Position numbers and translations under genes: made by a program | Shown: one piece after another, positions 32,117-50,398 of the stretch | How positions within the stretch are numbered: position 1 is the stretch's first letter | Layout: each line of letters starts with the position of its first letter | Source of the DNA: an uncultured Sphingomonadaceae bacterium | GTDB lineage: Bacteria > Pseudomonadota > Alphaproteobacteria > Sphingomonadales > Sphingomonadaceae | DNA length: 64,000 bases | Assembly (NCBI GenBank): GCA_964247235.1 | Contig: CAXTTJ010000005.1 | Location: 9,065 to 73,064, forward strand | Direction: 5' to 3' | Notes under the pieces: generated by a model | What the model was told of the DNA's origin: nothing | Databases searched by the model: none | What the model saw: the letters and a program-made list of their open reading frames with translations, nothing else

Positions 32117-33126
32117 CAGATCAGCGTCCCGATGGCTCCCGCCGTATCGACCATGCGGTTCGAAAAGCCCCATTCATTGTCATACCAGCTGACGACGCGC
32201 ACGAGCTTGCCGCCGATGACCGCAGTTTCAAGGCTGTCGACGGTCGATGACGATGCATTATGATTAAGATCAATTGAAACAAGCGGTTCATCTGTATAGT
32301 TGAGAATTCCTGCCAGCGGTCCGCTTTCCGATGCGGCTTTCAGGATGGCATTGACCTCGTCCCTTGTCGTGTCACGCGACGGCGTGAAGGTCAGATCGAC
32401 CAGCGAGACGTTCGGCGTCGGCACGCGCACGGCAGACCCGTCGAGTTTGCCTTTCAGTTCCGGAAGCACTTCCCCCACGGCGCGCGCGGCACCGGTTGTC
32501 GTCGGGATGATCGACATGCCCGCCGCACGCGCCCGGCGCATGTCGGGATGAATCTGGTCCAGAATCTTCTGATCATTGGTATAGGCGTGGATCGTCGTCA
32601 TCAATCCCCGTTCGATTCCAATGGCATCGTTCAATATTTTCGCAACAGGGGCGAGGCAGTTGGTCGTGCACGACGCGTTCGAAACGATCATGTGTTCGGG
32701 CTTCAGCTTGTCATGATTGACACCGAACACGACAGTGAGATCAACGCCCTTTGCCGGGGCCGAGATGAGCACGCGCTTCGCCCCCGCATCGAGATGCTTC
32801 TGCGCTGAGTCACGATCGGTAAAAAACCCTGTGCATTCAAGCGCGATGTCGATATTGTTCGCGGCGTGTGGCAAGTTGGCAGGATCACGTTCTGCGGTCA
32901 CGTGAATGCGCTTTCCGTCAATGATGATGTCATTGCCATCGGCGGCAACCGTGCCGGGATAGGCGCCGTGCACGCTGTCGCGCTTGAACAGCATCGCGTT
33001 CGATTTCGCATCGGCAAGATCGTTGATCGCCACCAGTTCAAGCCCGCAATCGGGCCGTTCCAGGATCGCGCGCGCGACAAGGCGGCCGATCCGCCCGAAA
33101 CCATTGATTGCAACCTTCACAGCCAT
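32116..33126 (-). CDS. gap: Glyceraldehyde-3-phosphate dehydrogenase
   Basis: [30 protein letters not shown]. Confidence 0.98.
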
Positions 33127-33128
33127 CG

Positions 33129-35093
33129 TCAGTCCTTTTGTAATTCATCAAGAATTTTTGGTATGATCGCGTCGGCGGTCAGCCCGAAATGCGCATACAG
33201 GGCATCGATAGGCCCCGACGCGCCGAAACTGTCGATGCCAAAGCGCAAGCCACCGCCGACATAGCGTTCCCAGCCCATCGTCGTCCCCGCCTCGATCGAT
33301 ATGCGCAGTGGCCCATGTGGCAGGACATCCGCCCGGTACGCCGCCGTCTGCGCATCGAAACGCGTCCAGCAGGGCATGGAAACGACGTCCGCGCCAATGC
33401 CGTGGCGTTCGAGGCCGTCAGCCACTGACATCGCCAGCGACACCTCTGACCCGGTCGCGATCAGGATCACGCGCCGCGCTGCGGTGGCAGGACGCAGCCT
33501 GTAACCGCCCCGCGCCGACCAGTTTTCGCTCATATCTCTGCGCAATTGCGGCAGAGTCTGTCGCGACAAGGCCAGCAGCGACGGTCCGCCAGCCTTTTCG
33601 ATTGCCAGCGCCCAGCATTCGGCTGTCTCGATCGCGTCGCATGGCCGGTACACGTCAAGATTGGGGATAAGCCGCAGCGACATGATCTGTTCGACCGGCT
33701 GGTGCGTCGGGCCGTCCTCGCCGACGCCGATCGAATCATGCGTCATCACATAGGCGACGCGTGCATTCTGCAACGCCGAAAGCCGGATTGCGGCGCGGCA
33801 GTAATCCGAGAAGATCAGGAAAGTGCCGCCATAAGGGATGACCCCGCCGTGCAGCGCCATGCCGTTCATCGCCGCCGCCATGCCGAATTCGCGGATGCCA
33901 TAGTTTACATAACGCCCGGCGTAGTTCGTCACATCAAGCGTGTCTGTCGATGCCGTCCGGGTAAAATTCGAACCGGTCAGATCGGCCGATCCCCCCAGCA
34001 AGTCAGGCAGCGCCGCAGTCGCCGCCGTCAGCGCCATTTCGGATGCCTTGCGCGTCGCAACTTTCTGTGGCGCGGCGATCAGTGTGTCGATATGCGGTTG
34101 CAGCCATGCGCTGCCCGGCGTTCCGGCCAGACGACGCTGAAATTCATCGGCATGCGGCGATGCCAGCAGCCGTGCCGCCCATGCCCTGTGCGTGTCAGCC
34201 CCGCGCGATCCGGCGGCGCGCCATTCGGTCAGGATATCTTCGGGAATTTCGAAGGGTGCGTAAGGCCAGTCGAGCGCGGCCCGCGTCGCCGCCACTTCGT
34301 CCTTGCCCAGCGGGCTGCCGTGCGGCGCCTTGGTCCCCTGCTTGGTCGGCGCGCCTTTGCCGATGAGTGTGCGGCATGCGATCAACGTCGGCCGGTCATC
34401 CTCCAGCACTAACTTGATAACGCGGTCTATATCGTTGAAATCATGTCCATCACATGCTTCGACACGCCAGCCGCTTGCCCGGTATCGCGCCGGAATATCC
34501 TCACTGGTCGACAATGTCGTCGCGCCGTCGATCGTGATGCGATTGTCGTCCCAGAATATAATCAGGCGCCCCAGACCGAGATGCCCGGCAAGGCCGACGG
34601 CTTCATGATTGATGCCCTCCATCAGGCATCCGTCTCCGGCTACGACCCACGTGCGGTGATCGACCAGGGCATCGCCGAACAGCGCGTTCAGATGACGTTC
34701 GGCAATCGCCATGCCGACTGCCATCGCCAGCCCCTGCCCCAGTGGTCCGGTGGTGCATTCGACCCCCGCCAGCTCGAAATTTTCCGGATGCCCGGCGCAC
34801 GGACTGCCGAGTTGACGGAAATTGCGGATGTCGTCGATGGTCGGCTTTTCATAGCCGGTCAGGTAGAGCGTGGAATAAGCCAGCATCGAGCCATGTCCGG
34901 CCGACAGGACGAACCGGTCACGATCCGCCCATCTGGGCGCCGCGGCATCGAATTTGAGGTATCTGGTGAACAGCACCGTCGCCACATCCGCCATTCCCAT
35001 CGGCATGCCGGGGTGCCCCGAACTGGCCGCCTCGACCGCATCCATCGACAGCGCGCGGATGGCATTTGCAAGGCGGTCCGGCGTAACGGTCAT
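33129..35093 (-). CDS. tkt: Transketolase
   Basis: [28 protein letters not shown]. Confidence 0.98.
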
Positions 35094-35218
35094 GAAATCT
35101 TCCCAGGTCGATGAGTCGCTGTGTGAAGCGATGGTCCGCCCCTTTGTCGCGGGGGGGCGCAGCCGTCAATGTTACAGCGGCAGTTGATGCGACGGACAGG
35201 CGTGCTATTCACCCGATC

Positions 35219-35407
35219 ATGACCGATGACTCGACGACGCACGCGCTTGACCGCATCAATCGGGCGCTGACCCGTATCGAAGCGGCTGCTGCACGAACAC
35301 CCCCTTCCTCCGGGGGTGAAGCGCGGTATCAGGCCCTGCGGTCGCGCACGCAGGCCGCACTCGCCAGCCTTGAAACGGTGATCCGTCAAGCGGGGGGACC
35401 GCAATAA
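35219..35407 (+). CDS. Small coiled-coil protein upstream of zapA
   Basis: 62-aa helical ORF coupled to zapA by a TAATG overlap. Confidence 0.7.
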   Translation: MTDDSTTHALDRINRALTRIEAAAARTPPSSGGEARYQALRSRTQAALASLETVIRQAGGPQ

Positions 35408-35709
35408 TGGCCGACGTCGACGTGGTCGTGGGCGGGCGCCATTACAGCATTGCCTGCCGCGACGGGGGCGAGGACCATCTTCGCACCATCGCCGCGCATG
35501 TCGACCGCAAGGCCGCAGAAGCCAAGGCCGCCGTGGGCGATGTCAACGAAACGCGGCAATTGCTGTTCGCAGCGCTCCTGCTCGCCGACGAAATCGCGGA
35601 AAACGCTGGCAGCGTGCCCGCAGCGCCCACCGATCCGCGCGTGGCAACTGCGCTGACCCAGCTTGCAAATCGTATCGAAGCCGTTGCCGATACGCTCGAA
35701 CATCCCTAA
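35407..35709 (+). CDS. zapA: Cell division protein ZapA
   Basis: GRHYSIACRDGGEDHL, LLFAALLLADE; zapA-6S-ygfA gene order. Confidence 0.9.
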   Translation: MADVDVVVGGRHYSIACRDGGEDHLRTIAAHVDRKAAEAKAAVGDVNETRQLLFAALLLADEIAENAGSVPAAPTDPRVATALTQLANRIEAVADTLEHP

Positions 35710-35711
35710 AC

Positions 35712-35882
35712 AGGTGTTGGCGGGTACTGCCCGGTACGAGCTCGTTGAACATCCCTGAGGCGATTATTCATCCTGGGGGACTGTCCCTGTTCAGGCCCTG
35801 GCCTGCGTATATGGTTCCCACCTGACGTTTCTGGCGTCAGAGGATATTCGGAGCAAACGACCATGGTGGTCCCGCCAACATC
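35712..35882 (+). ncRNA. ssrS: 6S RNA
   Basis: About 170 nt closed by the terminal stem TGTTGGCGGG / CCCGCCAACA, located between zapA and ygfA. Confidence 0.85.
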
Positions 35883-36435
35883 GCTGAATTTATTGCGTAA
35901 AAAACTAAGGCAGCAGCGACAGTATAGTGCAGATAACGCAGAAAATCGGAACGAAGCCGCATTCAGGCGGTCGGCCCTGTTCGACGACGTGCTGAACGCC
36001 GCATCTTCGGTGGGCAGTTATCTTCCCTGTGGCGGAGAGCCTGATCCCGCCCGGCTGACGTCAAAGGCCACGTCATTCCCCGTTGTCGCGCCGGGTCATC
36101 GCATGATGACGTTTCATCGCTGGTCTGCGGGTGATCCGCTCGACACGACGCTGTGGGGCGGACAGCAACCCGCCGCGACGGCTGAGCGGGTTGAACCGGA
36201 CCTCATCCTCGTGCCGATGCTGGGGTTCGATCATGCCTTCAACCGCATCGGTCAGGGTGGCGGTTATTACGACCGCTATCTGGCCGCACATCCGCGTGCG
36301 CTGCGCATCGGCATTGCCTGGGACGTGCAACGGCTCGATCATATCGATGCCCGGCCGTGGGACGTGGCGATGGATGCCATCCTGACCGAAACCAGTTTCC
36401 ATGTGAAGGACTTGACCCGATGCCGACCCCGTTAG
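35863..36435 (+). CDS. ygfA: 5-formyltetrahydrofolate cyclo-ligase (start uncertain)
   Basis: DLILVPMLGFD, RIGQGGGYYDR, PWDVAMD. Confidence 0.9.
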   Translation: MVVPPTSLNLLRKKLRQQRQYSADNAENRNEAAFRRSALFDDVLNAASSVGSYLPCGGEPDPARLTSKATSFPVVAPGHRMMTFHRWSAGDPLDTTLWGGQQPAATAERVEPDLILVPMLGFDHAFNRIGQGGGYYDRYLAAHPRALRIGIAWDVQRLDHIDARPWDVAMDAILTETSFHVKDLTRCRPR

Positions 36436-36790: not shown

Positions 36791-37066
36791 GGCGCGGCTG
36801 GAAACCGGCCATTGCACCTGGCCCCACCGAATTTTGACGTCAGAATGGCGAAAATCGGGCCTTTCACATTAACAAATTCATGGCAGTCAGCAATCGTTTG
36901 CAGGCAGCAACCGCTCTCTGTCTCCATCGACCGAGGCTGACGTCATTTTGTCAGATTGGCGTTAACGAATTTTTGGTTAGTTGGCGCGCATACCCCATTT
37001 CGAAGCAAAATTCCTATGGGGACTGCAATGACTTTGGGGGCCGGCTGGTCGATTTTGAACGTACGG

Positions 37067-38038
37067 ATGGGGCATATCGCGCCACTCGTCGTCGCGACTG
37101 CGTCCATCGTCTTTGCCCACCCCGCACATGCCGTCGGGACTGCGGCAGGCACCACGATCAGCAATACCGCAACCGCGACCTATACCGACGGCAGCGGCAA
37201 TCTCGTCAACGTGCCATCGAACAAAGTCGACATCCGCGTCGATGAGTTGCTTGACGTCAAGGTCGCGTCGGCCGACCCCGGTGATGTCGCGGCCCTGCCC
37301 GGCGCCACCAACCAGGTCCTGACTTTTTCCGTCACCAATACCGGCAATGGATCGGAAGCATTCCGGCTTGCCCCGATCAATGCCATCGGTGGCGATGCAT
37401 TTGACCCGACGACGACCTCGCTTGTCATCGACAGCAATGGCAATGGCGTTTATGATCCTGGAGTCGACACGGTGTACAACGCCGGATCGAACGATCCTGT
37501 GCTTGCGCCTGATACGTCGGTAAAAATATTTGTCCTGTCGACGGTCCCTGTCGGAGCCACAGATGGCCAGCGCGGCCAGACCGACCTGACGGCAACCGCC
37601 ATTACCGGAAGCGGCACACCCGGCACGACATTTGCCGGCCAGGGACAGGGCGGCGGCGATGCCATTGTCGGCAGCACCACAGCGCTTGGCCGCGACAAGG
37701 GCTTTTACATCATCAACACCGCGACCGTCAGCTTTGTGAAAAGCGCCGCGGTTGCCGATCCTTTTGGCGGAACCAAGTCAGTCCCCGGATCCATCATCAC
37801 CTACACGCTGGTCGCTACCGTGACGGGATCAGGATCGCTGGCCAATCTTGCCGTCGGCGATCCGGTTCCCGCTGGCACAACCTATGTTCCCGGGACGATC
37901 ACGTCGCAATCAGCGCCGGTCACCGACATCACTGATGCCGACAGCGGCGAATTTGCGACGAACCGCGTGGCGGTCCGTTTCGGCACCGTTGTCGGCGGTC
38001 AGACCCGCACTGTGACCTTCAAAGTAAAAATCAACTGA
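37067..38038 (+). CDS. Secreted DUF11/isopeptide-domain protein, subunit 1 (start 37028 or 37067)
   Basis: Signal peptide ending AHA, GTAAGTTISNTAT, DSNGNGVYD, VKS...PGSIITY...GDPVP...FKVKIN*. Confidence 0.8.
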   Translation: MGHIAPLVVATASIVFAHPAHAVGTAAGTTISNTATATYTDGSGNLVNVPSNKVDIRVDELLDVKVASADPGDVAALPGATNQVLTFSVTNTGNGSEAFRLAPINAIGGDAFDPTTTSLVIDSNGNGVYDPGVDTVYNAGSNDPVLAPDTSVKIFVLSTVPVGATDGQRGQTDLTATAITGSGTPGTTFAGQGQGGGDAIVGSTTALGRDKGFYIINTATVSFVKSAAVADPFGGTKSVPGSIITYTLVATVTGSGSLANLAVGDPVPAGTTYVPGTITSQSAPVTDITDADSGEFATNRVAVRFGTVVGGQTRTVTFKVKIN

Positions 38039-38061
38039 CTCTGATGGAAAGGATTCCCCCC

Positions 38062-38523
38062 ATGAAACTCCTTCTCGCCCTTTTCGCGCTTATGGTTCCA
38101 GTTGCGGCGCAGGCGACCAATGATGTCGCGCTGACGAGCAGTGTGTTTGTCGAGAAATCGGTGCCGCAAGCCGACGGCCATGCGCGCCTCATTCTCGAAG
38201 AACCGCGCGTCGTGGTTCCCGGTGACAAGCTGGTCTTTGTTCTTGCCTACAAGAATCTGGGCGGAAAGCCCGCAACCGATTTCGTCGTCACCAATCCGAT
38301 GCCGGGTGCCGTTGCCTATCAGGGCACGGGCGACGCGGGCGCGCTCGTGTCGATCGACGGCGGCCGGACGTGGGGCACACTCGCCACGCTGAAGGTTCGC
38401 AAGGCCGACGGCAGCGTGCGGGCCGCATATCCCGAAGATGTCACGCACGTCCGCTGGGCCATGAAATCGCCAATCCCGGTCGGAGCGGCCGGCAAGTTAA
38501 GTTTTCGCGGCGTCGTTCGCTAG
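38062..38523 (+). CDS. Secreted single-domain DUF11-like protein
   Basis: Signal peptide ending AQA; VVPGDKLVFVLAYKN...TNPMP. AAAGGA RBS. Confidence 0.8.
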   Translation: MKLLLALFALMVPVAAQATNDVALTSSVFVEKSVPQADGHARLILEEPRVVVPGDKLVFVLAYKNLGGKPATDFVVTNPMPGAVAYQGTGDAGALVSIDGGRTWGTLATLKVRKADGSVRAAYPEDVTHVRWAMKSPIPVGAAGKLSFRGVVR

Positions 38524-38592
38524 CTGCAACCCGTTTTCAGTGCCGACGGGTGGGGAAAGGCACTTTTGAGACCAGGAAGTGAGTAGAGTAAG

Positions 38593-39672
38593 ATGACCAG
38601 GACCATGACATTGCTGGCAGGCGCCAGTGGTATCGCACTGTCGGCCTTTGGTGCCACGTCCGCACTTGCGGCCGGTACGGCGTCGGGATCGGTTATTTCC
38701 AACGTTGCGACTGTCAGCTATTCGGTTGGCGGCACCGCACAGCCCGCGATTTCAAACGTCGCCAACACATTCACGGTCGACCGCAAAGTCGTGTTCCGTG
38801 CCGACGAAACCGCACCGATCGCCACGACGACCGTCGCGCCGGGTCAGGCGGTTGCCGTCACCACCTTCACGGTGTCGAACACGTCGAACGCGACGATGGA
38901 CTTTGGCCTGGCTGTCACGCAGCAGGCCGGCGGCCCTGGCGCGCACAGCAACACCGACAATTTCGACGTGACCACGCCGACGACCTATGCCGACACGAAC
39001 GGCAACGGCGTTTATGATGCCGGGACCGATCTTGCCATCACTTATCTCGACGAAGTTCTGCCTGACACCTCACGCACCGTGTTTGTCGTCGCAGCCATTC
39101 CGTCGGGCCGGGTCACGGGCGATGTCGCCGCTGTCACGCTGACAGCACAGGCGCGCGACGGTGGCGTGAGCGGAACGCAGGGTGCGGTCGCCGCCAACAC
39201 TGCGGGTGCGAACACTGCGGGTGTCGACACTGTCCTTGCCGACAGCGCCTATGATGCTCTGAACACCGCATCGGACGGATTTGCCGTGGCCAAGGACGAC
39301 TACACCGTTTCGGCCGCCGCAATCACCGTCAACAAGGTCAACCGCGTCATCGAGGATCCGATCAACACGATCGCCAGCGGCAATGCCGCCAATGCCAAGA
39401 TGATTCCCGGCGCCACGATCGAATATTGCATCATCGTTGCCAACGCAGCGGGCGGCGGGACAGCGACGGGCGTGTCGATCACCGATCCGGTTCCCAGCAC
39501 ATTGACGATCATTCCGGCATCGCTGCGCATCAACGGCACGGCATCGGGCAGCACCTGCTCGGGCGGCGTCGCAGGCGGCAGTGTTGCGGGCCAGACGGTA
39601 TCGTCGGGCACGCTCAACAATATTGCTGCCGGCGCCAATGTCGCCGTCTATTTCCAGGCAACGATAAACTGA
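38593..39672 (+). CDS. Secreted DUF11/isopeptide-domain protein, subunit 2
   Basis: Signal peptide, AGTASGSVISNVAT, DTNGNGVYD, IPGATIEYCIIVAN, ITDPVP, FQATIN*. Confidence 0.85.
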   Translation: MTRTMTLLAGASGIALSAFGATSALAAGTASGSVISNVATVSYSVGGTAQPAISNVANTFTVDRKVVFRADETAPIATTTVAPGQAVAVTTFTVSNTSNATMDFGLAVTQQAGGPGAHSNTDNFDVTTPTTYADTNGNGVYDAGTDLAITYLDEVLPDTSRTVFVVAAIPSGRVTGDVAAVTLTAQARDGGVSGTQGAVAANTAGANTAGVDTVLADSAYDALNTASDGFAVAKDDYTVSAAAITVNKVNRVIEDPINTIASGNAANAKMIPGATIEYCIIVANAAGGGTATGVSITDPVPSTLTIIPASLRINGTASGSTCSGGVAGGSVAGQTVSSGTLNNIAAGANVAVYFQATIN

Positions 39673-39679
39673 TGCGTCG

Positions 39680-39753
39680 CACATCCGAAATCGGGGGATT
39701 TTCGGGTGTGTGTCTGCTCGCGGCGTTCCTGTCTCTGCGGAGACGGGGACGCC
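39680..39753 (+). other. Two tandem stem-loops between subunit genes 2 and 3
   Basis: 39680-39710 (imperfect) and 39722-39753 (14 bp with G-U pairs, TGCG loop). Confidence 0.7.
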
Positions 39754-39781
39754 GTTTGGCCGTTTCAAAGGGGAGCCGATC

Positions 39782-40837
39782 ATGCGCACTATGACACTGC
39801 TGGCGGGGACCAGCCTGCTGACGCTATTGGTGCCAGTGGCGGCGCGCGCTGCGGGAACGGTCTCTGGATCGACGGTGTCCAACACGGCGACAGTCACTTA
39901 TGCAGTTGGTGGCGTGACGCAACCGACGGTTTCGAACACCCCCAACACATTCGTGGTCGACCGCAAGATCGTCTTTCGCGTCGATGAAAGCGCACCAATT
40001 GCCACGACAACGGTCGCGCCAGGCCAGTTGCTTGCCGTCACTACATTCACGGTCAGCAACACGTCGAACACAACGCTCGATTTCGGACTTGGCCTGACGC
40101 AACAGGTCGGTGGACCGGGCGCGCACAGCAATACCGACACGTTCGATGTCACGACTCCCGGACTTTTCGCCGATACCAACCTGAACGGCGTCTATGATGC
40201 GGGCATCGATCAGGCCATCACCTATCTCGACGAAGTGCTGGCCGACACGTCGCGCACGGTCTTTGCCGTCGCAAATATACCGGGCGGACAGGTGACCGGT
40301 GATGTTGCCGCCGTAACGTTAACCGCGCAGGCGCGTGATGGCGGGTCCGCTGGTGCGCAGGGCGCCATTTCTGCGAACACGACCGGCGCGAATACCGCAG
40401 CCGTCGACACGGTCTTTGCCGACACGGCCTATGACACGCTCAATGTCGCGGCAGATGGGCTGGGCGTGGCCAAGGATGATTATACCGTTTCCACCGCCGC
40501 CTTGTCAGTGACCAAAGTCAACCGCGTCATTTCCGACGGTTTCAACAGCGCGGTCAACGCCAAATTCATTCCCGGCGCGACAATCGAATATTGCATCATC
40601 GTTGCCAATGCCGTTGGCGGCGCCACCGCAACGGGTGTTTCGATAACCGATCCGGTTCCCGCAACGCTCAGCATTGTCGCAGGATCGCTCAGGATCAACG
40701 GCACGGCGGTCGTAAGCGTGTGTTCGGGGGGCGCCGCAGGCGGGACAATCACGGGACAGAATGTTGCATCGGGTACGCTGAACCCGATCCTGGCGGGGAC
40801 AAATAATGCCGTTTATTTTCAGGCAATCGTAAACTGA
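39782..40837 (+). CDS. Secreted DUF11/isopeptide-domain protein, subunit 3 (tandem paralog of subunit 2)
   Basis: Colinear with subunit 2 throughout; ends FQAIVN*. Confidence 0.85.
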   Translation: MRTMTLLAGTSLLTLLVPVAARAAGTVSGSTVSNTATVTYAVGGVTQPTVSNTPNTFVVDRKIVFRVDESAPIATTTVAPGQLLAVTTFTVSNTSNTTLDFGLGLTQQVGGPGAHSNTDTFDVTTPGLFADTNLNGVYDAGIDQAITYLDEVLADTSRTVFAVANIPGGQVTGDVAAVTLTAQARDGGSAGAQGAISANTTGANTAAVDTVFADTAYDTLNVAADGLGVAKDDYTVSTAALSVTKVNRVISDGFNSAVNAKFIPGATIEYCIIVANAVGGATATGVSITDPVPATLSIVAGSLRINGTAVVSVCSGGAAGGTITGQNVASGTLNPILAGTNNAVYFQAIVN

Positions 40838-40838
40838 C

Positions 40839-40895
40839 GGGTGGCGTGACGGGTTCGCAATCCTGTGACCCGCCATCCACTCTGGTACTTTTTTT
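40839..40895 (+). terminator. Imperfect hairpin plus T-tract (attenuator-like) before the platform gene
   Basis: GGGTGGCG...CGCCATCC, followed about 10 nt later by T7. Confidence 0.45.
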
Positions 40896-43800
40896 ATGCG
40901 TTTTGGGGTTAACCATCTGAAGGCCATCATGGCCCCCCTTGCCGCCCTGCTTGCAGTGGCGGCATTGCCCGTTCATGCCCAGACGATCAGCAACACTGCG
41001 ACGATCGCATGGCAGGTCGGTGCCACCACGCTGGTCAAGGATTCGAACAAGGTCGACCTTGTCGTCGAACGTCCGCCGACCACATTGTCATTGTCGACAT
41101 TCCAGTTTTCGGGCGATGCCGGCGCAACCCTGCTCCCTGTGCCGACCACGATCTGTCGCGGCAGCGGCGGGGACGTGCCCGTCATTCTTGAAGGCGCATT
41201 CGCCAACACCCGCCGCGACCCCGCCAGTGTCGAGCAGACAGACCAGATCCGTGCCGGTGAACCACTTGTCGTCGGCATCACATCAGCGGCTGACAATATC
41301 CGCGCCGACGCCGTTGATTTTCTTTCCGTCACGCTGACGACGCCGACCGGCGACGCCGAAACCCTGATCTTGCAGGAAACTGGCGCCAATACGAACCTGT
41401 TTGTTGGCGTAATTCGTACCGCTGCGGTTCCTCCTGAGGCTGTCAAGGGTGATTGCCAGTTGTCGCTGCACCCCGGCGACAACCTGACACTCGCCACGAC
41501 GCGCGTGCAGGACGGAACCTCGATCGCCAGCACACCCATCGACGTCCTCATCGACCCCTATGGCGTCGTTTTCGACAGTGCGGACGGCAAGCCGGTCGGC
41601 GGCGTGCGCGTGACATTGGTCGACGATGCCACTGGCCTGCCCGCCACGATATTCGGTGATGACGCGATTTCGAGCTTTCCGTCGACGATCACGACCGACG
41701 GCCTGCCCATCACCGACGCGAGCGGTACGGTCTATCGCTTTCCGGTCGGAGATTATCGCTTTCCCTTTGTCAGGCCCGGGCGATACCGGCTTTTGGTCCA
41801 GCCCCCGACGCCCTACACTGCACCGTCGCTTTCGTCACCGGCCGAACTGGCCGGTTTGCTGCGTCCTGACGGTTTGCCCTTCACGCTGATCGCCGGGTCT
41901 TACGGACAGCCATTTGTCGTCAATGATCCTGCGCCGGTGCGTGTCGATGTGCCCGTCGACAAGCCCGGTGCGGCACTGCAACTGCGCAAGACCGCGTCGT
42001 CGGCGGTGGCGGTCCCCGGCGATGCCGTGCAGTACCGCATCGTCGTGACCAATGGCGACGCCCTTCGCGCAACCGGAATCGTGACCGTGACGGATCATTT
42101 GCCCGCGACCATGCGCCTGAAATTGAATTCGGTTCGCTATAATGGAACAATACAATCCTATTCGGTTAGTAGCGACGGTCATGACCTGACAATTACCTTG
42201 CCACCGCTGGCTGCCCGCGCATCTGGTACGGTCACCTATCTTCTCGAAGTGCGTCCCGACGCACCTGCCGGGCAGACCATGAACCGGGCACAGGCGCGCG
42301 ACAGCCGGGGCACGGTCAGCGCGGTCGCAGACGCCATGGTCCGCATCGCCCGTGACACGCTGGGTGACCGGATGACGATCATCGGCCGCATCACTGATGG
42401 CGGTTGCACGGTCGATCCCGACAGCGCGAACGGCATCGGCGGTGTCCGGGTCATGCTCGAAGATGGCAGCTATGCCGTCACCGATCCCGATGGACGCTAT
42501 CATTTCGAAGGGGTCCTGCCCGGCACCCATGTCGTCCAGATGGACCCGTCGACACTGGGGCCGAGCCTGATCCCCGCCAATTGCACGCTGAATGCGCGCG
42601 CGGGTGGCAGCCCGATCTCGCGCTTTGTCGAGGGACAGGGCGGTGCGCTGATCCGTGTCGATTTCCGGGCACAGGCGGGCGTCAACCCGGCGCTGGGTGC
42701 GGCAAAGGCCCCTGCCCGTCCCAAACCCGCTGGCGAGGCCGCAGCGGCCGGTGCGGACCGCGACTGGTTCGACGGGCAGACCCCCGGTGTCGCCTGGCTG
42801 TTTCCGGCACCCGATCATAATCCGCGGACAAAGGCGGTGCGCGTCGTAATCAAGCATCTGCCCGGTCAGACCGTCACCCTGTTCTCGAACGGCAAAGCTG
42901 TCAGCCCGCTCACGCTCGACGGGACGCGCAAGAATGGCGATGGCAGCATTGCCGTGACAGTGTGGCGCTCGCTCGACCTTGGCGATCATGACACGCGGTT
43001 CACCGCCGAAGTGCGCGATGCCAATGGCGTCGTTGTCGACCGGCTCGACCGCACCGTGCACTATGCCTCGAACCCGATGAATGCCGCGCTTGTCCGGGAA
43101 AAATCGGTGCTGATCGCAGACGGCGTGACGCGCCCTGTCATTGCCGTGCGCCTGACTGATCGTGACGGCCACCCCGTGCACCACGGCCTGGTCGGTGACT
43201 TCGCAGTCCCCGCTCCCTATTTCCCCGCTGTCGAAGCCGATGCACAGGCCGCGCGCCAGCTCGCCGGTCTGGAACGTGCCCGCCCCGTCTGGCATGTGGA
43301 GGGCGAAGACGGCATTGCCTATATCGAACTCGAACCGACCACAGCGTCGGGGGCCTTGTCGATCACCCTGCCGTTCCGCGACGGCCAGGTGGCCCGCACG
43401 CAGCGCATCGACAGCTGGCTCGAACCCGGCAATCGCCCATGGACCGTCGTCGGCTTTGCGGCGGGCACTGTCGGTTTCAATACACTCAAGGGTCGGCTTG
43501 AAGGGGTTGGCGCGAACGGCAGCCACTGGCTGACCGACGGCCGCATCGCGCTGTATGCCAAGGGCCGGCTCAAGGGCAAATGGCTGCTGACTCTTGCTTA
43601 CGACAGCGACAAGCGTCAGGACGAAAGCCGTTTCGGTGGCGTCATTGATCCGCAAAGCTATTACACAATCTATGCCGATCGCAGCGAACGCCGCTACGAT
43701 GCCGCATCGGTCCGCAAACTTTATGTCCGGCTGGAACGCCCGCAATTCTATGCCCTGTTCGGCGATTTTGAAACCGGCATGGTCGAACCGCAACTGACGC

Positions 43801-45983
43801 GTTATGTGCGCAGTTTCAACGGCGTGAAGGCGCAATATCGCAACGAACATGTTGCCGCGACTGCATTTGCCGCCGACACGCCCTACCGCCACCGTCGTGA
43901 AGAAATCCAGGGCAACGGCCTGACCGGTCCCTATCAGCTTGGTGCGCGTGACATCCTGCCCAACAGCGAGCGCATCACGATTGAAATCCGTGACCGGCTG
44001 CGTTCGAACCGGATTGTCGAAACCCGTGCGCTGACCCGCCATATCGATTATGACATCGATTATGTCGCGGGCACGTTGCGGTTTCGCGATCCCGTGCTCA
44101 GCCGCTCTTCGCTGCTCGACCCGCAGGTCATCATTGTCGATTATGAAGTCGACGGCATCGGTCAGCGCGTCACCAACGCCGGCGGGCGCGCCACCTGGAC
44201 CAACAGCGCCAAGACACTTGTTGTCGGCGCCAGTGCGATCCACGACGAAAGCGATGCCGCCAGAACCAATGTCGGCGGCGTCGACATGCGCTACACACCC
44301 AATGCCCAGACCGAAGTCCGCGCCGAATTCGCACACAGCACCGCCAGTGCACGCAGCGGCGCAATCGCACCGACGACAGGTGACGCCAGCGCCAGCGCCT
44401 GGCTGGTCGAAGCCGAACATCACGGCCCCAAATATGATATTCTCGCCTATGCCCGCGAACAGCAGTCCGGGTTCGGGGTGGGTCAGCTCAACACGTCGGA
44501 AACCGGCACGCGCAAATATGGGTTTGACGGGCGGCTTCGCTTTGGTCCGGACCTGTCGCTTGTCGGCAGCGCGTGGCAGGAAGATTATCTGGCCAGCATC
44601 GCGCGGCGCCAGGCCGGGCAGGCGCGCATCGAATACCGGGCAAAAGGTGTTGACCTGCGCGCCGGGATCACATTTGCCAATGACCGTCTGGCCGATGGCC
44701 GCACGGCCCAGTCGCGCATTGCCCAGCTTGGCGCGACCAGACGTTTCATGGACAACCGGCTCGAACTCGACGCCCAGACCGAATTCGCAATCGGCGGCAA
44801 GGACGAAAGCATCGACGTGCCTGCCCGTCACCGTGCCAGCGCGCGCTTTGCCGTGACGCCTGCCGTCGCCATTGTCGGCAGTTATGAAATCGCCAAGGGC
44901 CAGACCATCGACGCCCGCACCGCACGGGTCGGCTTTGACGTGAAGCCATGGGCCGGGGGCCACATCGTCACCAGCCTCAATCAGCAAAGCATCGCCGAAT
45001 ATGGCCCGCGCAGCTTTGCGGCGTACGGCCTGTCGCAATCGCTGCCGATCGGCAAGCGCTGGACTGTCGATGTCACGCTCGACGGCAACAAGACTCTGAA
45101 CGGCATTGATCGCACCCGGGTGCTGACCACGGCCCAGCCGGTCAGCTCGGGCGGCTTCATCGGCAGCGACGGCACGCTGACCGAAGATTTCACGGCTGTC
45201 ACCGCCGGGGCCAGCTATCGCGGTGACCGCTGGAGCCTTGCTGGCCGCATCGAGGCACGTGCCGGAAACCGGACTGATCGCTATGGCCTCAACCTGTCCG
45301 TCCTGCGCCAGCTTGGCGAGGGTCAGGCCTTTGGCGGCGCCTTCGGCTGGTTCCGCGCCAATGAAGCCGCTGGCCAGACATCGGAATCGACATCGCTTGC
45401 CCTGAGCTGGGCCAATCGCCCGGACGACAGCCGCTGGGCCTGGCTCGAAAAGCTTGAGCTGCGCCGCGATGCCGTCACCAACGCCGTTACGGGACTGCCC
45501 GGCGCCATTGGTGGCGCGCCGTCGCTCGTCACGGGCAACGCCAGTGCGTCACGCATCATCAACAGTATCAGTGTCAACTGGTCCCCCGTCACCAAAGCCG
45601 AAGGACGTTACCTCGGGCGCAGCGAAGTCTCGCTGTTCTGGGGCAGCCGCTACACGTCGGACCGGATCGACCGGGACGACCTGTCGGGCTGGTCGAACGT
45701 CGTGGGTGCAGACATCCGCTTTGACCTGGGCGAAACAGTGGATATCGGCCTCGCCGGCACCGTGCGCGAAAGCACGGGTGGCCGCGCCATCAGCTATTCG
45801 GGTGGCCCCTCGATCAGCCTGTCACCGTTCGAAAACAGCTATATCACCGTGGGCTACAACGTCGTCGGTTTCAACGACCGCGACTATGGCGATACCCGCT
45901 ACACACGCAGCGGCCCCTATCTGACGCTCCGCCTGAAATTCGACCAGAATTCACTCGGCGCACTGGGCCTCGGACGCCGGTAA
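40896..45983 (+). CDS. 1695-aa exported protein: Ig-like/DUF11/SdrD-B-like domains plus a large C-terminal beta-barrel-like region
   Basis: Signal peptide; LRKTA..VPGDAVQYRIVVTN..VTDHLP; GVRVMLEDGSYAVTDPDGRYHF; alternating amphipathic strands in the C-terminal half. Confidence 0.8.
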   Translation: MRFGVNHLKAIMAPLAALLAVAALPVHAQTISNTATIAWQVGATTLVKDSNKVDLVVERPPTTLSLSTFQFSGDAGATLLPVPTTICRGSGGDVPVILEGAFANTRRDPASVEQTDQIRAGEPLVVGITSAADNIRADAVDFLSVTLTTPTGDAETLILQETGANTNLFVGVIRTAAVPPEAVKGDCQLSLHPGDNLTLATTRVQDGTSIASTPIDVLIDPYGVVFDSADGKPVGGVRVTLVDDATGLPATIFGDDAISSFPSTITTDGLPITDASGTVYRFPVGDYRFPFVRPGRYRLLVQPPTPYTAPSLSSPAELAGLLRPDGLPFTLIAGSYGQPFVVNDPAPVRVDVPVDKPGAALQLRKTASSAVAVPGDAVQYRIVVTNGDALRATGIVTVTDHLPATMRLKLNSVRYNGTIQSYSVSSDGHDLTITLPPLAARASGTVTYLLEVRPDAPAGQTMNRAQARDSRGTVSAVADAMVRIARDTLGDRMTIIGRITDGGCTVDPDSANGIGGVRVMLEDGSYAVTDPDGRYHFEGVLPGTHVVQMDPSTLGPSLIPANCTLNARAGGSPISRFVEGQGGALIRVDFRAQAGVNPALGAAKAPARPKPAGEAAAAGADRDWFDGQTPGVAWLFPAPDHNPRTKAVRVVIKHLPGQTVTLFSNGKAVSPLTLDGTRKNGDGSIAVTVWRSLDLGDHDTRFTAEVRDANGVVVDRLDRTVHYASNPMNAALVREKSVLIADGVTRPVIAVRLTDRDGHPVHHGLVGDFAVPAPYFPAVEADAQAARQLAGLERARPVWHVEGEDGIAYIELEPTTASGALSITLPFRDGQVARTQRIDSWLEPGNRPWTVVGFAAGTVGFNTLKGRLEGVGANGSHWLTDGRIALYAKGRLKGKWLLTLAYDSDKRQDESRFGGVIDPQSYYTIYADRSERRYDAASVRKLYVRLERPQFYALFGDFETGMVEPQLTRYVRSFNGVKAQYRNEHVAATAFAADTPYRHRREEIQGNGLTGPYQLGARDILPNSERITIEIRDRLRSNRIVETRALTRHIDYDIDYVAGTLRFRDPVLSRSSLLDPQVIIVDYEVDGIGQRVTNAGGRATWTNSAKTLVVGASAIHDESDAARTNVGGVDMRYTPNAQTEVRAEFAHSTASARSGAIAPTTGDASASAWLVEAEHHGPKYDILAYAREQQSGFGVGQLNTSETGTRKYGFDGRLRFGPDLSLVGSAWQEDYLASIARRQAGQARIEYRAKGVDLRAGITFANDRLADGRTAQSRIAQLGATRRFMDNRLELDAQTEFAIGGKDESIDVPARHRASARFAVTPAVAIVGSYEIAKGQTIDARTARVGFDVKPWAGGHIVTSLNQQSIAEYGPRSFAAYGLSQSLPIGKRWTVDVTLDGNKTLNGIDRTRVLTTAQPVSSGGFIGSDGTLTEDFTAVTAGASYRGDRWSLAGRIEARAGNRTDRYGLNLSVLRQLGEGQAFGGAFGWFRANEAAGQTSESTSLALSWANRPDDSRWAWLEKLELRRDAVTNAVTGLPGAIGGAPSLVTGNASASRIINSISVNWSPVTKAEGRYLGRSEVSLFWGSRYTSDRIDRDDLSGWSNVVGADIRFDLGETVDIGLAGTVRESTGGRAISYSGGPSISLSPFENSYITVGYNVVGFNDRDYGDTRYTRSGPYLTLRLKFDQNSLGALGLGRR

Positions 45984-47211: not shown

Positions 47212-48576
47212 TCAACTTTCGCGGAATGCGCGCCGGAAACTGTCAACGACCGGTTGCATCAGATACTGAAGTAAGGATCGCGACCCAAGGTTGATGAACA
47301 CTTCGGCAGGCATGCCGGAGACGAGCCGGATGTCCTTGAGCTGCCTCAGTTCTTTCACGTCCAGAACAATCTGTGTTTCGTAATAGAGCGTGTTGGTCTT
47401 GTCATCATACGTAGCATCGGGGCTGACTTCACGGACCGTGCCATGCAGCATCGGCATGGTCCGTGCCTTGTACGGAGTCAGCCGGATTTCCGCGGGCAGA
47501 TCCTGATACACGACATCAACGTCATTTGCCTTCAATCGTGCAACGACGACGATTTTTTCGTTCGCAGGGACAATATCGAGGATCGGTTGTCCGGGACCGA
47601 CGACGCCGCCGGGCGTCACCATGCGCAAATTGACGACAGTGCCATCGACCGGGGCCACGATCTGCCGCCGCCTGCTGATATCGCGGCTGACGTTCAGTTT
47701 TTCCACCATGTCAGCAAGACTGGCCTGGACATCGCGCTGTTGCGCTGCGGCGTCGGTGACCATCTGACTGCGCAGAAACGCCATCTGGGCATGGGTTTCG
47801 CCAACGGTATCACGGATCCGGGCCTGATTTCCCATCAGTTGCCCCTGCTGTCCGATCGTCGCCGCCTGCTGCCGCTGCAATGCGAGCAGGCGCGATTTGC
47901 GTTCCAGCCCCTCATCGACCAGCGTCTGGACGCCCCGGGCTTCTTCGTCGAGCAATTTGCTCTGACTGCCAAGCGCCTCGACCTGCGCGCCTGTGCTTGC
48001 CATTTCCGCACTGGACTGGCCGACACGCTGCCGCAGGATCGAGATTTGTTCGCCCATGGCACGACGCCGTGCACGAAAGACGGCATCGGATGCGGCGATG
48101 ATTGATTTCACGCTGTCATCCTTGCCGCGGTTGAGCAGTTCGGACGGATAAGTCACATGCGCACTGCCCGTGCGTTCTGCGGTCAGCCGCGCGTCCTGGG
48201 CAAGGAGCGTGTCATATGTCGTTTGCAGCGCCGTATCGCGTGCGCCGCTGGCCGTATTGTCGAGATAGACCAGCACCTGCCCCGCTTTGACACGCTGGCC
48301 TTCCTTGACGGCGATGCGCTGGATGATGCCGCCTTCGAGATGCTGGACAACTTTGCGGCCGCCGCCGTCGGATCGCAGCACGCCCTGTGCGATTGCCGCG
48401 CTGTTGAGCGGGGCAAAAATGGCCCAGAGACTGAAAAAGCCGACAAACAGACCAAGTGCCCAATAGGCTGTCCGCAAAATATGGTTAACCGCCGGCGCAT
48501 CGGGGAAATGCACGGGCACCACAGCGTTGCGCGGGACATCAATGTCCGTGGGGCGAATAGTGATAGGCGCATTCAT
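47212..48576 (-). CDS. HlyD/PrtE-type T1SS membrane fusion protein
   Basis: TM helix, VQHLEGGII, APVDGTV, SGMPAEVFI, YLMQP. Confidence 0.93.
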   Translation of the reverse strand: MNAPITIRPTDIDVPRNAVVPVHFPDAPAVNHILRTAYWALGLFVGFFSLWAIFAPLNSAAIAQGVLRSDGGGRKVVQHLEGGIIQRIAVKEGQRVKAGQVLVYLDNTASGARDTALQTTYDTLLAQDARLTAERTGSAHVTYPSELLNRGKDDSVKSIIAASDAVFRARRRAMGEQISILRQRVGQSSAEMASTGAQVEALGSQSKLLDEEARGVQTLVDEGLERKSRLLALQRQQAATIGQQGQLMGNQARIRDTVGETHAQMAFLRSQMVTDAAAQQRDVQASLADMVEKLNVSRDISRRRQIVAPVDGTVVNLRMVTPGGVVGPGQPILDIVPANEKIVVVARLKANDVDVVYQDLPAEIRLTPYKARTMPMLHGTVREVSPDATYDDKTNTLYYETQIVLDVKELRQLKDIRLVSGMPAEVFINLGSRSLLQYLMQPVVDSFRRAFRES

Positions 48577-48589
48577 GACTGTCAGTCCC

Positions 48590-50398
48590 TTATTCGGCGG
48601 GGATGGAATGAACGACCGGGCGGCTTTTCCCATTTGCAAGCGGCGGTGGCTGTTTGGATGGAGATTGCGGACGTCGCGGCGGCTGCTGTCCGGCCAGCTG
48701 TGCCATGACGTCGCGCGTCGGCCCGAAGTTCGTGACACGACCTTCCTGCAGGACGACAATCTTGTCAGCCAGGCGCAGCAGATTGGGCCGATGCGAAACA
48801 ACCGCCGTCGTAACCTGCTGCTGCTTGAGCATCCGCAGCGTTTCCATCAGCGCCGCATCGCCGCGATTGTCGAGGCTGGAATTCGGTTCATCGAGGACAA
48901 TGATTTTCGGATTGCCAAACAGCGCCCGCGCCAGGCCGATCCGTTGCCGCTGCCCCCCCGACAGCTGCAAGGCGCCGTCGCCCAGCCGGAATTCATAGCC
49001 ATCTTCAAGCTGCAGGATCATTTCATGACAGTCGGCACGTTTGGCCGCCGCAATAACCTCTGCATCCGTGGCATCGCGGCGGAACCGCGCGATATTCGCC
49101 CGGATCGATCCGGGCAACAGTTCGATATCCTGCGGCAGATACCCGACATGCGGCCCGAAATCCGACCGTTTCCAGTCGAACGTGTCGGCACCGTCCAGCC
49201 GGACATGCCCGCCCGATGGCTTGAGAACACCGACGAGCAGGCGCGACAATGTTGTCTTGCCCGATGCCGACGGGCCGACGATCGCCAGCATTTCACCGGC
49301 AGCGATGTGCAGGCTGACGTTGCGAAGAACCGCTGTCTTCATGCCCGGGGGAACATAGCTGAGCGCCTGAATCGCAAGGGCACCCGTCGGGGCGGGCAAC
49401 GCCATTTCCGATGGCCGCGGGCGTGGCAAGGTCAAGAATTCGGACAGGCGCTGCCAGGCGTGACGCGCCAGCACAAACTGCTTCCAATAGCTGATCGACG
49501 CCTCGATCGGCGCCAGCAGACGTGCGACGATGATCGACCCCGCAATCATGGCGCCACCGGTCAGCTGCAGGTCGAGGATCAGCAGCGCACCAGTGGCGAG
49601 CAATATGATCTGAATGACATAGCGGATGAACTTGCTGGTCGCGAGCACACGGCTGGCCCGTCTCTGCGTTTCATCGACCGCATCGGTTTCTTCAAGATAA
49701 CCGCGCGCCCAATGGTCGACCGTGTCCCCTGCCATGCCCATGGCGTCGATGACTTCGCTGTTGCGGACAAGGCTTTCGGCATATTGCATGTTGGCGCTCG
49801 CCTGCGCCTGATTGGCACGGATTGCGCCGCGCGTCCGCCGTTCGTTGAAAAAGGTAAGTCCGAACAGGGCCCCTGCCCCCACGCCCCCGATCAGTCCGAA
49901 CAATGGGTGCAAAAGAAAAATCACGATGAGGTACAGCGGCACCCACATCATATCGACGACACTGAAAACAGTCGGCGTGGATATGAAATTCTTGACCGTC
50001 GCGAGCTCGCGCAACGCTTCCAGCCGGGTGTTCGGCATCGTCAGGCGCAGTTCGAGCGATCGCGTCAGCAGCCGGGGCCCAAGCTGCTGGGCAACCCAGG
50101 TGCCGACACGATTTGCAACTTGCTGACGCACACCTTCGAGCATCGCGCTCAACGCCACACCCGTCAGCGTTGCCACGGTCAGAAAGAATAATGTGTCCTT
50201 GCTCTGGCTTGTGAGCACACGGTCATAAACCTGCATCATGTAAAGCGACACGGTTAGCGTCATGATGTTGATGATGCCGCTGAAAATGACGAGCTTGCCG
50301 GCCAGCGACCGGTGCGGGGTCAGCATTTCGGTCAGCAGCGAAGGCTGCGGCTGGCCCCGACCGGGGCGAAAGGGTTTTGCAAATGCCATGGGGAACAT
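48590..50398 (-). CDS. PrtD/AprD-type T1SS ABC transporter (no C39 domain)
   Basis: YMMQVYDRV, Walker A GPSASGKT, LSGGQRQRI, LDEPNSSLD. Confidence 0.93.
   Translation of the reverse strand: MFPMAFAKPFRPGRGQPQPSLLTEMLTPHRSLAGKLVIFSGIINIMTLTVSLYMMQVYDRVLTSQSKDTLFFLTVATLTGVALSAMLEGVRQQVANRVGTWVAQQLGPRLLTRSLELRLTMPNTRLEALRELATVKNFISTPTVFSVVDMMWVPLYLIVIFLLHPLFGLIGGVGAGALFGLTFFNERRTRGAIRANQAQASANMQYAESLVRNSEVIDAMGMAGDTVDHWARGYLEETDAVDETQRRASRVLATSKFIRYVIQIILLATGALLILDLQLTGGAMIAGSIIVARLLAPIEASISYWKQFVLARHAWQRLSEFLTLPRPRPSEMALPAPTGALAIQALSYVPPGMKTAVLRNVSLHIAAGEMLAIVGPSASGKTTLSRLLVGVLKPSGGHVRLDGADTFDWKRSDFGPHVGYLPQDIELLPGSIRANIARFRRDATDAEVIAAAKRADCHEMILQLEDGYEFRLGDGALQLSGGQRQRIGLARALFGNPKIIVLDEPNSSLDNRGDAALMETLRMLKQQQVTTAVVSHRPNLLRLADKIVVLQEGRVTNFGPTRDVMAQLAGQQPPRRPQSPSKQPPPLANGKSRPVVHSIPAE

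Follow-up and report, generated by a model that had tools for sequence, protein, structure and literature searches.

Several described systems join protein subunits by strand donation, by self-forming isopeptide bonds or by both, and they are the background against which a five-gene operon is considered here, encoding three DUF11-type subunits, a small protein and a giant protein (hereafter the giant). The operon occupies positions 37028-45983 of a 64,000-nucleotide stretch of DNA (the window) from an uncultured Sphingomonadaceae bacterium (GenBank assembly GCA_964247235.1, contig CAXTTJ010000005.1, positions 9,065 to 73,064 of the forward strand). In chaperone-usher pili (type 1 and P pili; FimA-FimH with FimC/FimD) an incomplete immunoglobulin (Ig)-like fold is completed by an N-terminal extension that the next subunit supplies, the tip member has no such extension and polarity is thereby built in, the operon includes the gene of a dedicated large outer-membrane protein and no ATPase takes part; an analogous arrangement can be read from the present sequence. 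Unlike in these pili, the genome has no PapD-type chaperone or usher, the subunit fold is CLIPPER/CnaA-like, two strands instead of one would be donated, a Lys-Asp-Asn triad suggests a covalent lock and the terminal donor would belong to the putative outer-membrane protein.

Strand donation followed by a covalent lock is described for BsaA of Clostridium perfringens (TasA family), in which the N-terminal segment inserts into the beta-sheet of the next monomer and an intermolecular isopeptide bond is then formed; mutants of the bond residues in this "donor-strand exchange and lock" lose oligomerisation (PMC11580942). BsaA differs from the present proteins in being Gram-positive, in its TasA-type fold, in requiring the signal peptidase SipW and type IV pilus genes for secretion and in having no outer-membrane component; among the Pfam and NCBIfam matches of the subunits described here, which are of DUF11 type only, there is no TasA-type family, and the operon holds no peptidase gene. 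The archaeal thread protein Saci_0406 is exported by Sec, and its subunits are joined by donor-strand complementation through an N-terminal tail and by apparently spontaneous intermolecular isopeptide bonds, with no sortase (PMC9715654); this thread is archaeal, has a different fold and lacks an outer membrane or barrel protein.

DUF11 itself has been renamed CLIPPER, a nine-stranded CnaA-like fold whose strand-1 Lys bonds an Asn of the penultimate strand, an Asp acting as catalyst (PDB 9IFR; PMC12617251). The single-chain CLIPPER adhesins (PDB 9IFR; PMC12617251) share domain family and Lys/Asp/Asn chemistry with the operon, and an internal domain of the giant is an ordinary member; in the adhesins, however, the domain is intact and the bond intramolecular, whereas here the domain appears to be divided over separate polypeptides. 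In engineered split isopeptide domains (SpyTag/SpyCatcher, isopeptag; PMC6539128) a separated bond-partner strand likewise reconstitutes the fold on docking and self-ligates, but the present case would be natural, polymerising and CnaA-like, with two strands donated. Sortase-assembled pili of Gram-positive bacteria also combine CnaA/CnaB-type isopeptide pilins with covalent links between subunits; here the genome has no sortase, no LPXTG signal is visible in the subunit C-termini, and any link would arise autocatalytically inside the reconstituted domain. The nearest literature comprises the CLIPPER survey, a single-chain 49-domain DUF11 grappling hook, haloarchaeal tafi, the archaeal threads and BsaA of C. 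perfringens, and no split-CLIPPER multi-subunit system with a giant barrel was found described, in agreement with an earlier note on this DNA, made from the sequence alone, that knew of no functional description.

The same note had proposed an uncharacterised DUF11 fibre system with its own outer-membrane platform. The core of this idea still gives the best reading of the locus, but the isopeptide chemistry proposed with it has to be replaced. The proteins look as if one long adhesin had been divided within a self-crosslinking domain. It appears moderately probable that they form a head-to-tail chain through donor complementation with two strands, its joints probably locked by intermolecular Lys-Asn isopeptide bonds, and that this fibre or stalk ends on the giant outer-membrane protein.

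Truncated domains and putative donor modules

The five genes, with lengths in amino acids (aa), are as follows; N-module denotes the short segment at the mature N-terminus.

37028..38038, + strand: subunit 1, 336 aa, from the list of open reading frames (ORFs); Sec leader, N-module, domain 1 and truncated CLIPPER domain 2; TIGR01451, 34 bits
38044..38523, + strand: small protein, 159 aa; a single truncated DUF11-like domain, without N-module; always the second gene
38593..39672, + strand: subunit 2, 359 aa; the faster-evolving subunit type; TIGR01451, 43 bits
39782..40837, + strand: subunit 3, 351 aa; paralogue of subunit 2, 75% identical
40896..45983, + strand: giant, 1695 aa; Sec leader, donor N-module, Ig-like domains and beta-rich C-terminal domain; always the last gene

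The gaps between the genes are of 5-109 nucleotides and the next gene downstream is convergent. That all five are co-oriented and start with Sec leaders, as had been stated before, is confirmed by the ORF list and by inspection of the leaders, which have small residues at -3/-1 and the cleavage contexts (slash, predicted cut; in gene order) AHA/VGT, AQA/TND, ALA/AGT, ARA/AGT and VHA/QTI. The order subunit 1, small protein, one or two subunit-2-type genes (the type of subunits 2 and 3), giant is kept, among 80 related Sphingomonadales loci, in every one with enough upstream flank, and for this reason the unity of the operon goes far beyond chance. Subunit 1, always first in the cluster, is the most conserved subunit type, with homologues 55-82% identical.

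The assignment to DUF11 holds as well. The NCBIfam DUF11 repeat TIGR01451 (cut-off 24 bits) gives 34.1, 43.3, 41.2 and 36.5 bits for subunits 1, 2 and 3 and the giant, respectively, and Pfam finds DUF11 (PF01345; cut-off 24.6 bits) with 36.1 bits and CarboxypepD_reg with 41.9 bits in the giant; the small protein stays below cut-off (20.5 and 17.8 bits). The giant's intact internal CLIPPER domain (131 columns) served as yardstick for the completeness of the subunit domains, which are listed with it.

37730..38035, + strand: domain 2 of subunit 1, acceptor; Lys238 codon at 37739, Asp278 codon at 37859; hhalign 77.8%
39322-39669, + strand: truncated domain 2 of subunit 2; Lys248 codon at 39334, Asp298 codon at 39484; hhalign 96.4%
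40502-40834, + strand: truncated domain 2 of subunit 3; Lys245 and Asp290
41964..42356, + strand: complete internal CLIPPER domain of the giant; triad Lys365-Asp400-Asn463; Pfam DUF11 on residues 361-469, profile positions 2-98

The yardstick is anchored to a known structure, since the profile of giants matches PDB 9IFR with Asn463 (TMNRAQA) opposite the bonded Asn (VVNKVTA); among 25 diverse giants D400 and N463 are invariant and K365 nearly so. PDB sequence searches with subunits, chimeras and giant returned noise apart from this match. With Lys715 and Asn806 of 9IFR fixed to chain positions 10 and 101, the alignment places the catalytic Asp at 749 and not at 748 as published (Asp748; PMC12617251), a trivial difference that does not affect the conclusions.

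Compared with the giant's domain, domain 2 of the subunit-2 type is recognised by hhalign with 96.4% probability (E=1.3e-9) and that of the subunit-1 type with 77.8%, and both alignments break off at column 96 of 131, where strand 7 ends, leaving the final 35 residues unmatched. Pfam DUF11 on the domain of subunit 2 alone covers profile positions 8-78 of 114, and a direct hhalign comparison of the domains of the two subunit types (99.1%) spans their full length, both stopping at the same point. The last domain of the subunits thus reads as a CLIPPER domain cut off after strand 7 and deprived of its two last strands; a full nine-strand Lys/Asp/Asn domain in one chain is present, by sequence, in the giant's internal domain and absent from the last domain of the subunits and from the small protein. 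The residues expected on the acceptor side are nevertheless retained without exception, the strand-1 Lys and the Asp of the xDPxP motif each being invariant in 55/55 subunit-1-type and 66/66 subunit-2-type homologues. Hence, of the Lys-Asp-Asn triad that had been placed in the last domain, Lys and the G/TDPVP Asp stand and the C-terminal Asn does not, being variable and in the wrong strand; nor can the domain be self-contained, the conserved Asn being found instead in the N-terminal strand of the partners.

These N-terminal strands belong to four modules.

37133..37246, + strand: N-module of subunit 1, a strand-8/9-like donor hairpin, mature residues 1-38, VGTAAGTTISNTATATY...SNKVDIRVDE; Asn46 codon at 37163, invariant
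38671-38787, + strand: N-module of subunit 2; Asn37 codon at 38701
39851-39967, + strand: N-module of subunit 3; Asn34
40980..41075, + strand: N-module of the giant, QTISNTATIAWQVG...SNKVDLVVERP; Asn33 codon at 40992; Asn33 and Trp39 invariant

The mature N-termini (ISNTATATY...SNKVDIRV) follow the x-N-x-A-x-V pattern of the CLIPPER Asn strand and continue with a second strand. Their Asn is invariant in 55/55 homologues of the subunit-1 type, in 66/66 of the subunit-2 type and in 64/64 giants, where the module Trp is also invariant (64/64). Common to the mature N-termini of the three subunits is the motif GTxxGxx(I/V)SNxATxxY, which is the most conserved part of paralogues otherwise 31-34% identical; a hidden Markov model (HMM) of subunit 2 matches the first residues of the giant, and an N-module heads all diverse giants, including those only 35-50% identical in the barrel domain. 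When the real N-module is fused behind a truncated domain, the DUF11 match extends to positions 97-107 of 114 with a gain of 0.1-2.9 bits, and with a scrambled module as control the score falls by 2.4 bits; subunit 1 rises from 24.3 to 30.7 bits for DUF7927 and the small protein from 20.7 to 25.6 bits for DUF11. By the end coordinates, the donor Asn falls at about profile position 92, the same as Asn463 of the intact domain. Judged from these alignments, the missing strands 8-9 with the bond-forming Asn sit at the mature N-termini of the subunits and the giant. Since the conserved Asn lies in this N-terminal strand, any isopeptide bond would join an N-module to a truncated domain, most likely between chains. 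An arrangement in which each domain is a simple circular permutant starting with strand 8 was rejected, as the internal NTAT-containing strand of subunit 1 runs directly into strand 1 of the next domain.

The small protein, previously described as a small accessory protein, is indeed a small member of the operon, but it is itself a truncated CLIPPER domain. Its DUF11 match is confined to profile positions 13-73 and it ends, on reading of the sequence, in a strand-7-like ...KLSFRGVVR. None of 57 homologues (0/57) has an N-module, the catalytic position is Asn instead of Asp in 57/58, and the position of the Lys is K in 32 and R in 25. Such a protein could accept a module, crosslinking being unlikely, and it looks like a cap, a tip or a strand-holding partner. 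At the opposite end, the sole CLIPPER domain detected in the giant by Pfam is the complete one, so that the giant has no truncated domain. The operon therefore holds four donors and four acceptors.

Outside these parts, a further feature common to the subunits, confirmed together with the N-terminal strand motif, is a D-x-N-x-N-G-V-Y-D loop, putatively Ca-binding and of the DxDxDGxxD type. Its D, N, N, G, V, Y and D are invariant among the three paralogues, and the Asn, Asn, Gly and Tyr positions are at least 90% conserved in 76 homologues.

37430..37456, + strand: DSNGNGVYD loop in domain 1 of subunit 1 (equivalents at 38992-39018 and 40172-40198)

Proposed docking between chains and the alternatives

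The proposed route would start with export of all five proteins by Sec, as the leaders suggest. Each subunit's last CLIPPER domain, stopping after strand 7 and retaining the strand-1 Lys and the catalytic Asp, would then receive strands 8-9 with the bond-forming Asn from the mature N-terminus of another subunit or of the giant, and repeated insertion of N-modules into the truncated domains of other proteins would build a head-to-tail chain. Insertion would bring the Asn beside Lys and Asp, and a spontaneous intermolecular isopeptide bond could lock the joint. The giant is expected to terminate and anchor the chain because it can only donate; its barrel would hold the fibre in the outer membrane and may serve as exit pore. 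The small protein, an acceptor only and without catalytic Asp, may cap the chain or form its tip at the distal end, or may hold donor strands reversibly. The main argument for docking between chains is one of bookkeeping, since pure self-docking would leave the module of the giant and the groove of the small protein unsatisfied. The product could be either a long polymer or a short defined hetero-oligomer, and its likely function is adhesion or biofilm formation.

Partner choice was addressed by partial Mantel tests over 46 loci in which shared phylogeny was removed with barrel-domain distances. The N-module of the giant shows a partial r of 0.31 with domain 2 of subunit 1 (permutation p=0.0003), compared with 0.13 for domain 1 of subunit 1, 0.09 for the N-module of subunit 1, 0.04 for domain 2 of subunit 2 and -0.06 for the small protein, and the N-module window ranks 1/56 among 32-residue sliding windows along the first 500 residues of the giant. 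This suggests that the giant's module docks into subunit 1, and such docking would by necessity be between chains. The other inter-protein donor-acceptor pairs gave no signal in these tests, and column-wise mutual information between donor and acceptor (47 loci) was noise. Apart from the pair of giant and subunit 1, the strongest inter-protein covariation, with phylogeny removed, is between domain 1 of subunit 1 (37247-37729) and domain 1 of the subunit-2 type (38788-39321), with partial r=0.40; it could reflect a lateral contact or shared selection on surfaces.

A number of observations weigh against head-to-tail donation and moderate the confidence placed in it. The gain in profile score on addition of the N-module is small. 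Joining the module to domain 2 extends the hhalign alignment, but 2/40 and 3/40 column-shuffled controls score as high (p ~0.05-0.08), and hhalign of the N-module alone against the complete CLIPPER domain is not significant, the module being too short to score; with gains this small and controls this borderline, the identification of the module with the missing strands rests mainly on motif identity and conservation. The p-values of partial Mantel tests overstate significance on related sequences. Within single proteins, N-module and domain 2 correlate at 0.32 and 0.54, which fits self-docking or homopolymerisation equally. In the AlphaFold2 (AF2) monomer of mature subunit 2, which is all beta (predicted local distance difference test, pLDDT, 90.7; predicted template modelling score, pTM, 0.73), the 30 N-terminal residues exceed pLDDT 92, compatible with a module folded onto its own domain. 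Finally, the model of the giant's C-terminal barrel is poor (pLDDT 52), so that strand number, pore size and topology are unreliable.

The correlations within proteins, which are the highest between N-module and domain 2, and the confident monomer N-terminus are also what would be expected if each subunit stapled itself, its own N-module completing its own last domain, perhaps with an intramolecular Lys-Asn bond, to give compact secreted or surface proteins and no fibre. The giant would then be a separate adhesin-like outer-membrane protein, whose free N-module the small protein might bind. On reasoning only, the ring could be closed topologically if the two domains lay antiparallel and side by side. 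Self-complementation is a frequent artefact in AF2 monomers of strand-exchange pilins, and the monomer model cannot separate genuine self-docking from it; Foldseek on this model recovers generic tandem Ig-like proteins only (TM-score about 0.25). Self-stapling is considered unlikely on three further grounds: the invariant module of the giant and the truncated domain of the small protein would be partnerless unless paired with each other, for which their correlation (-0.06) gives no encouragement; the co-evolution of the giant's module with domain 2 of subunit 1 needs a groove open to another chain; and there is no evident gain in splitting a domain so that two of its strands come to lie at the opposite end of the same chain.

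Alternatively, the N-terminal motif could be a targeting tag that directs the subunits to the giant for export and completes no domain, the subunits being released or surface-attached cargo. The motif is the best conserved part of the diverged paralogues and common to all putative cargo, and the barrel family is consistently encoded beside DUF11 proteins, even in loci without the motif. Quite improbable in spite of this, such a tag would leave unexplained why the translocon itself starts with the motif, why every subunit stops exactly after strand 7 with Lys and Asp invariant and why the motif fits CLIPPER profiles at their Asn strand.

The least credible version, a complete last domain crosslinked through strand-1 Lys, DPVP Asp and C-terminal Asn with the N-terminal strand as a separate non-covalent complementation, accommodates the ...FKVKIN, ...FQATIN and ...FQAIVN termini of the three subunits and the fact that Asn is the commonest last residue (31/55 subunit-1-type and 56/66 subunit-2-type homologues), but Q, D, P, R or L stands there in the remaining homologues and D, Q, K or R in other classes, the residue aligns with the point where strand 7 ends, several residues ahead of the strand 8 that bears the Asn in complete domains, and CnaA-like folds bond the Asn of the penultimate strand (PMC12617251), which these domains lack. 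As Q, D, P, R, L and K replace it in homologues, the C-terminal Asn is not an essential bond partner, and it was rejected as such.

The giant protein and known assembly machinery

In line with an anchoring role in the head-to-tail scheme, the giant ends in a large beta-rich region.

43404..45980, + strand: C-terminal beta-rich domain, ~860 aa; putative very large outer-membrane barrel

An AF2 model of the last 865 residues consists almost entirely of long beta hairpins (~36-40 strands at pLDDT 52). Foldseek with this model retrieves outer-membrane barrels exclusively, TonB-dependent transporters being the best matches (E 6e-7), at TM-scores of at most 0.2 on a model of that quality. Near its end the giant carries a beta-signal-like segment of conserved type, GPYLTLRLKF (45912-45941), followed by a conserved DQN tail. 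The large barrel named in the earlier note is thus favoured by the hairpin-rich model, the barrel-only matches and the beta-signal-like end, and held back by low model confidence and low TM-scores. The tail itself (45942-45980) comprises 13 residues (DQNSLGALGLGRR) past the beta-signal-like strand, and its first residues, D-Q-N/H/T, are conserved in the giants of other classes. Outer-membrane proteins normally end at an aromatic residue, and the tail of the giant is unusual in this respect.

The C-terminal domain has no Pfam, NCBIfam or PDB sequence family match. A search of 1.84 billion cluster representatives returned 2870 proteins (1118 at E <1e-30), in which the domain is always C-terminal and the typical length is about 1500-2700 aa. 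The ~860 residues therefore appear to represent a widespread, undescribed beta-rich family that is probably an outer-membrane barrel. Usher, autotransporter, SprA and TonB-dependent receptor membership of the giant were each considered and rejected, no profile of any of them matching: there is no usher match in the giant, no autotransporter or intimin barrel family in the giant or 24 diverse relatives and no Pfam Plug or TonB_dep_Rec in 25 giants, and SprA/Sov TIGR04189 gives 10.7 bits on the giant against a cut-off of 200, over a 100-residue stretch only. The succession of N-terminal Ig-like domains and C-terminal barrel recalls type V autotransporters in layout only.

All of the 25 diverse giants contain DUF11 and CarboxypepD_reg, and 15/25 have an OmpA peptidoglycan-binding domain between the second CarboxypepD_reg and the barrel region. 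Because most relatives carry this domain there, the N-terminal half of the giant, including the donor module, is probably periplasmic, and usher-like growth from the base, in which the module of the giant would end and tether the chain, is accordingly likelier than an autotransporter-like outward stalk. The outer-membrane platform suggested earlier is thereby retained as anchor, although the giant would be more than a platform, namely the donor-only terminal member. In the giant of the window, an Ala/Pro/Gly-rich linker (...AKAPARPKPAGEAAAAGADRD...) at 42660-42815 (residues ~590-640) stands roughly where relatives have the OmpA domain.

The genome, 99.6% complete, was searched for pilus machinery with profiles whose controls worked. 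Usher (PF00577) and PapD-like chaperone (PF00345, PapD_N) gave 0 matches genome-wide with the E. coli control positive, and no sortase (PF04203) was found with a working positive control, which confirms that the three components are missing. No LPXTG signal or membrane anchor is visible in the subunit C-termini. Prepilin peptidase and ATPase genes are absent from the operon and its adjoining genes, the only place where they were looked for, no genome-wide search having been made.

It is tentatively proposed, as possible rather than probable, that the operon represents a new class of pilus in double-membraned bacteria, in which a split CLIPPER domain polymerises the subunits without chaperone, usher, sortase or ATPase and the fibre is covalently ended on the N-terminus of the giant, with a new type of very large outer-membrane barrel as anchor and exit pore. 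If true, it would provide a new Gram-negative route to surface fibres in which order and polarity are set by who donates and who accepts the strand pair, strength comes from spontaneous covalent bonds and the terminator is built into a membrane protein, and it would extend isopeptide joining of pilus subunits beyond Gram-positive bacteria and archaea. It would also give a function to a barrel family of 2870 cluster representatives without Pfam or PDB relative, explain many "DUF11 domain-containing protein" annotations and offer a natural counterpart of SpyTag/SpyCatcher, a source of orthogonal self-ligating tag/catcher pairs and possibly a tool for protein ligation. The hypothesis is directly testable by simple co-expression, SDS-PAGE and mass spectrometry.

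Distribution and neighbouring genes

The C-terminal domain of the giant occurs in 30/201 sampled genomes of the order (17/67 genera) and in 47/401 genomes of the phylum, other classes included. Among culturable species, Sphingomonas paeninsulae, S. gilva and Chakrabartia godavariana have homologues. Operons from distant genomes of other classes have the same layout, with two to four leader-bearing subunits followed by a giant that ends in ...KFDQN...; their subunits have x-x-N-x-A/V-x at the mature N-terminus and terminate with a strand of the form ...F-x-V-x-[IVL]-x.

Shorter relatives of the barrel (1126-1277 aa), which have in common with the giant roughly the first 300 residues of its C-terminal region, occur in loci L097:2415-8971 (-) and L099:15-5761 (+), that of L099 ending in ...RLRFKFDE. 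They have no N-module and lie directly downstream of multi-domain DUF11/SdrD_B proteins, which themselves show no cut after strand 7. The barrel family thus seems to be generally partnered with DUF11 proteins.

The usual neighbours of the cluster in related loci are tkt and a gene for 5-formyltetrahydrofolate cyclo-ligase. In the window, gap, tkt, a zapA-like gene and the ligase gene lie beside the fibre operon at 32116-36435. Most related loci that carry the operon have tkt and the ligase gene next to it, the operon itself being present in only ~15% of the genomes of the order. Downstream, at 47212-50398 (-), an HlyD-like membrane-fusion ORF and an ATP-binding cassette (ABC)-transporter ORF, both read by eye, belong to a type I secretion island; the two are not kept beside the fibre operon in related loci. 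In the own genome, a search with subunit HMMs finds one sole paralogue of the five genes, a partial 647-aa DUF11-like ORF on another contig (C28:18055-19995, -) with several repeats that resemble the C-terminal region of subunit 2 (hmmsearch E=7e-20).

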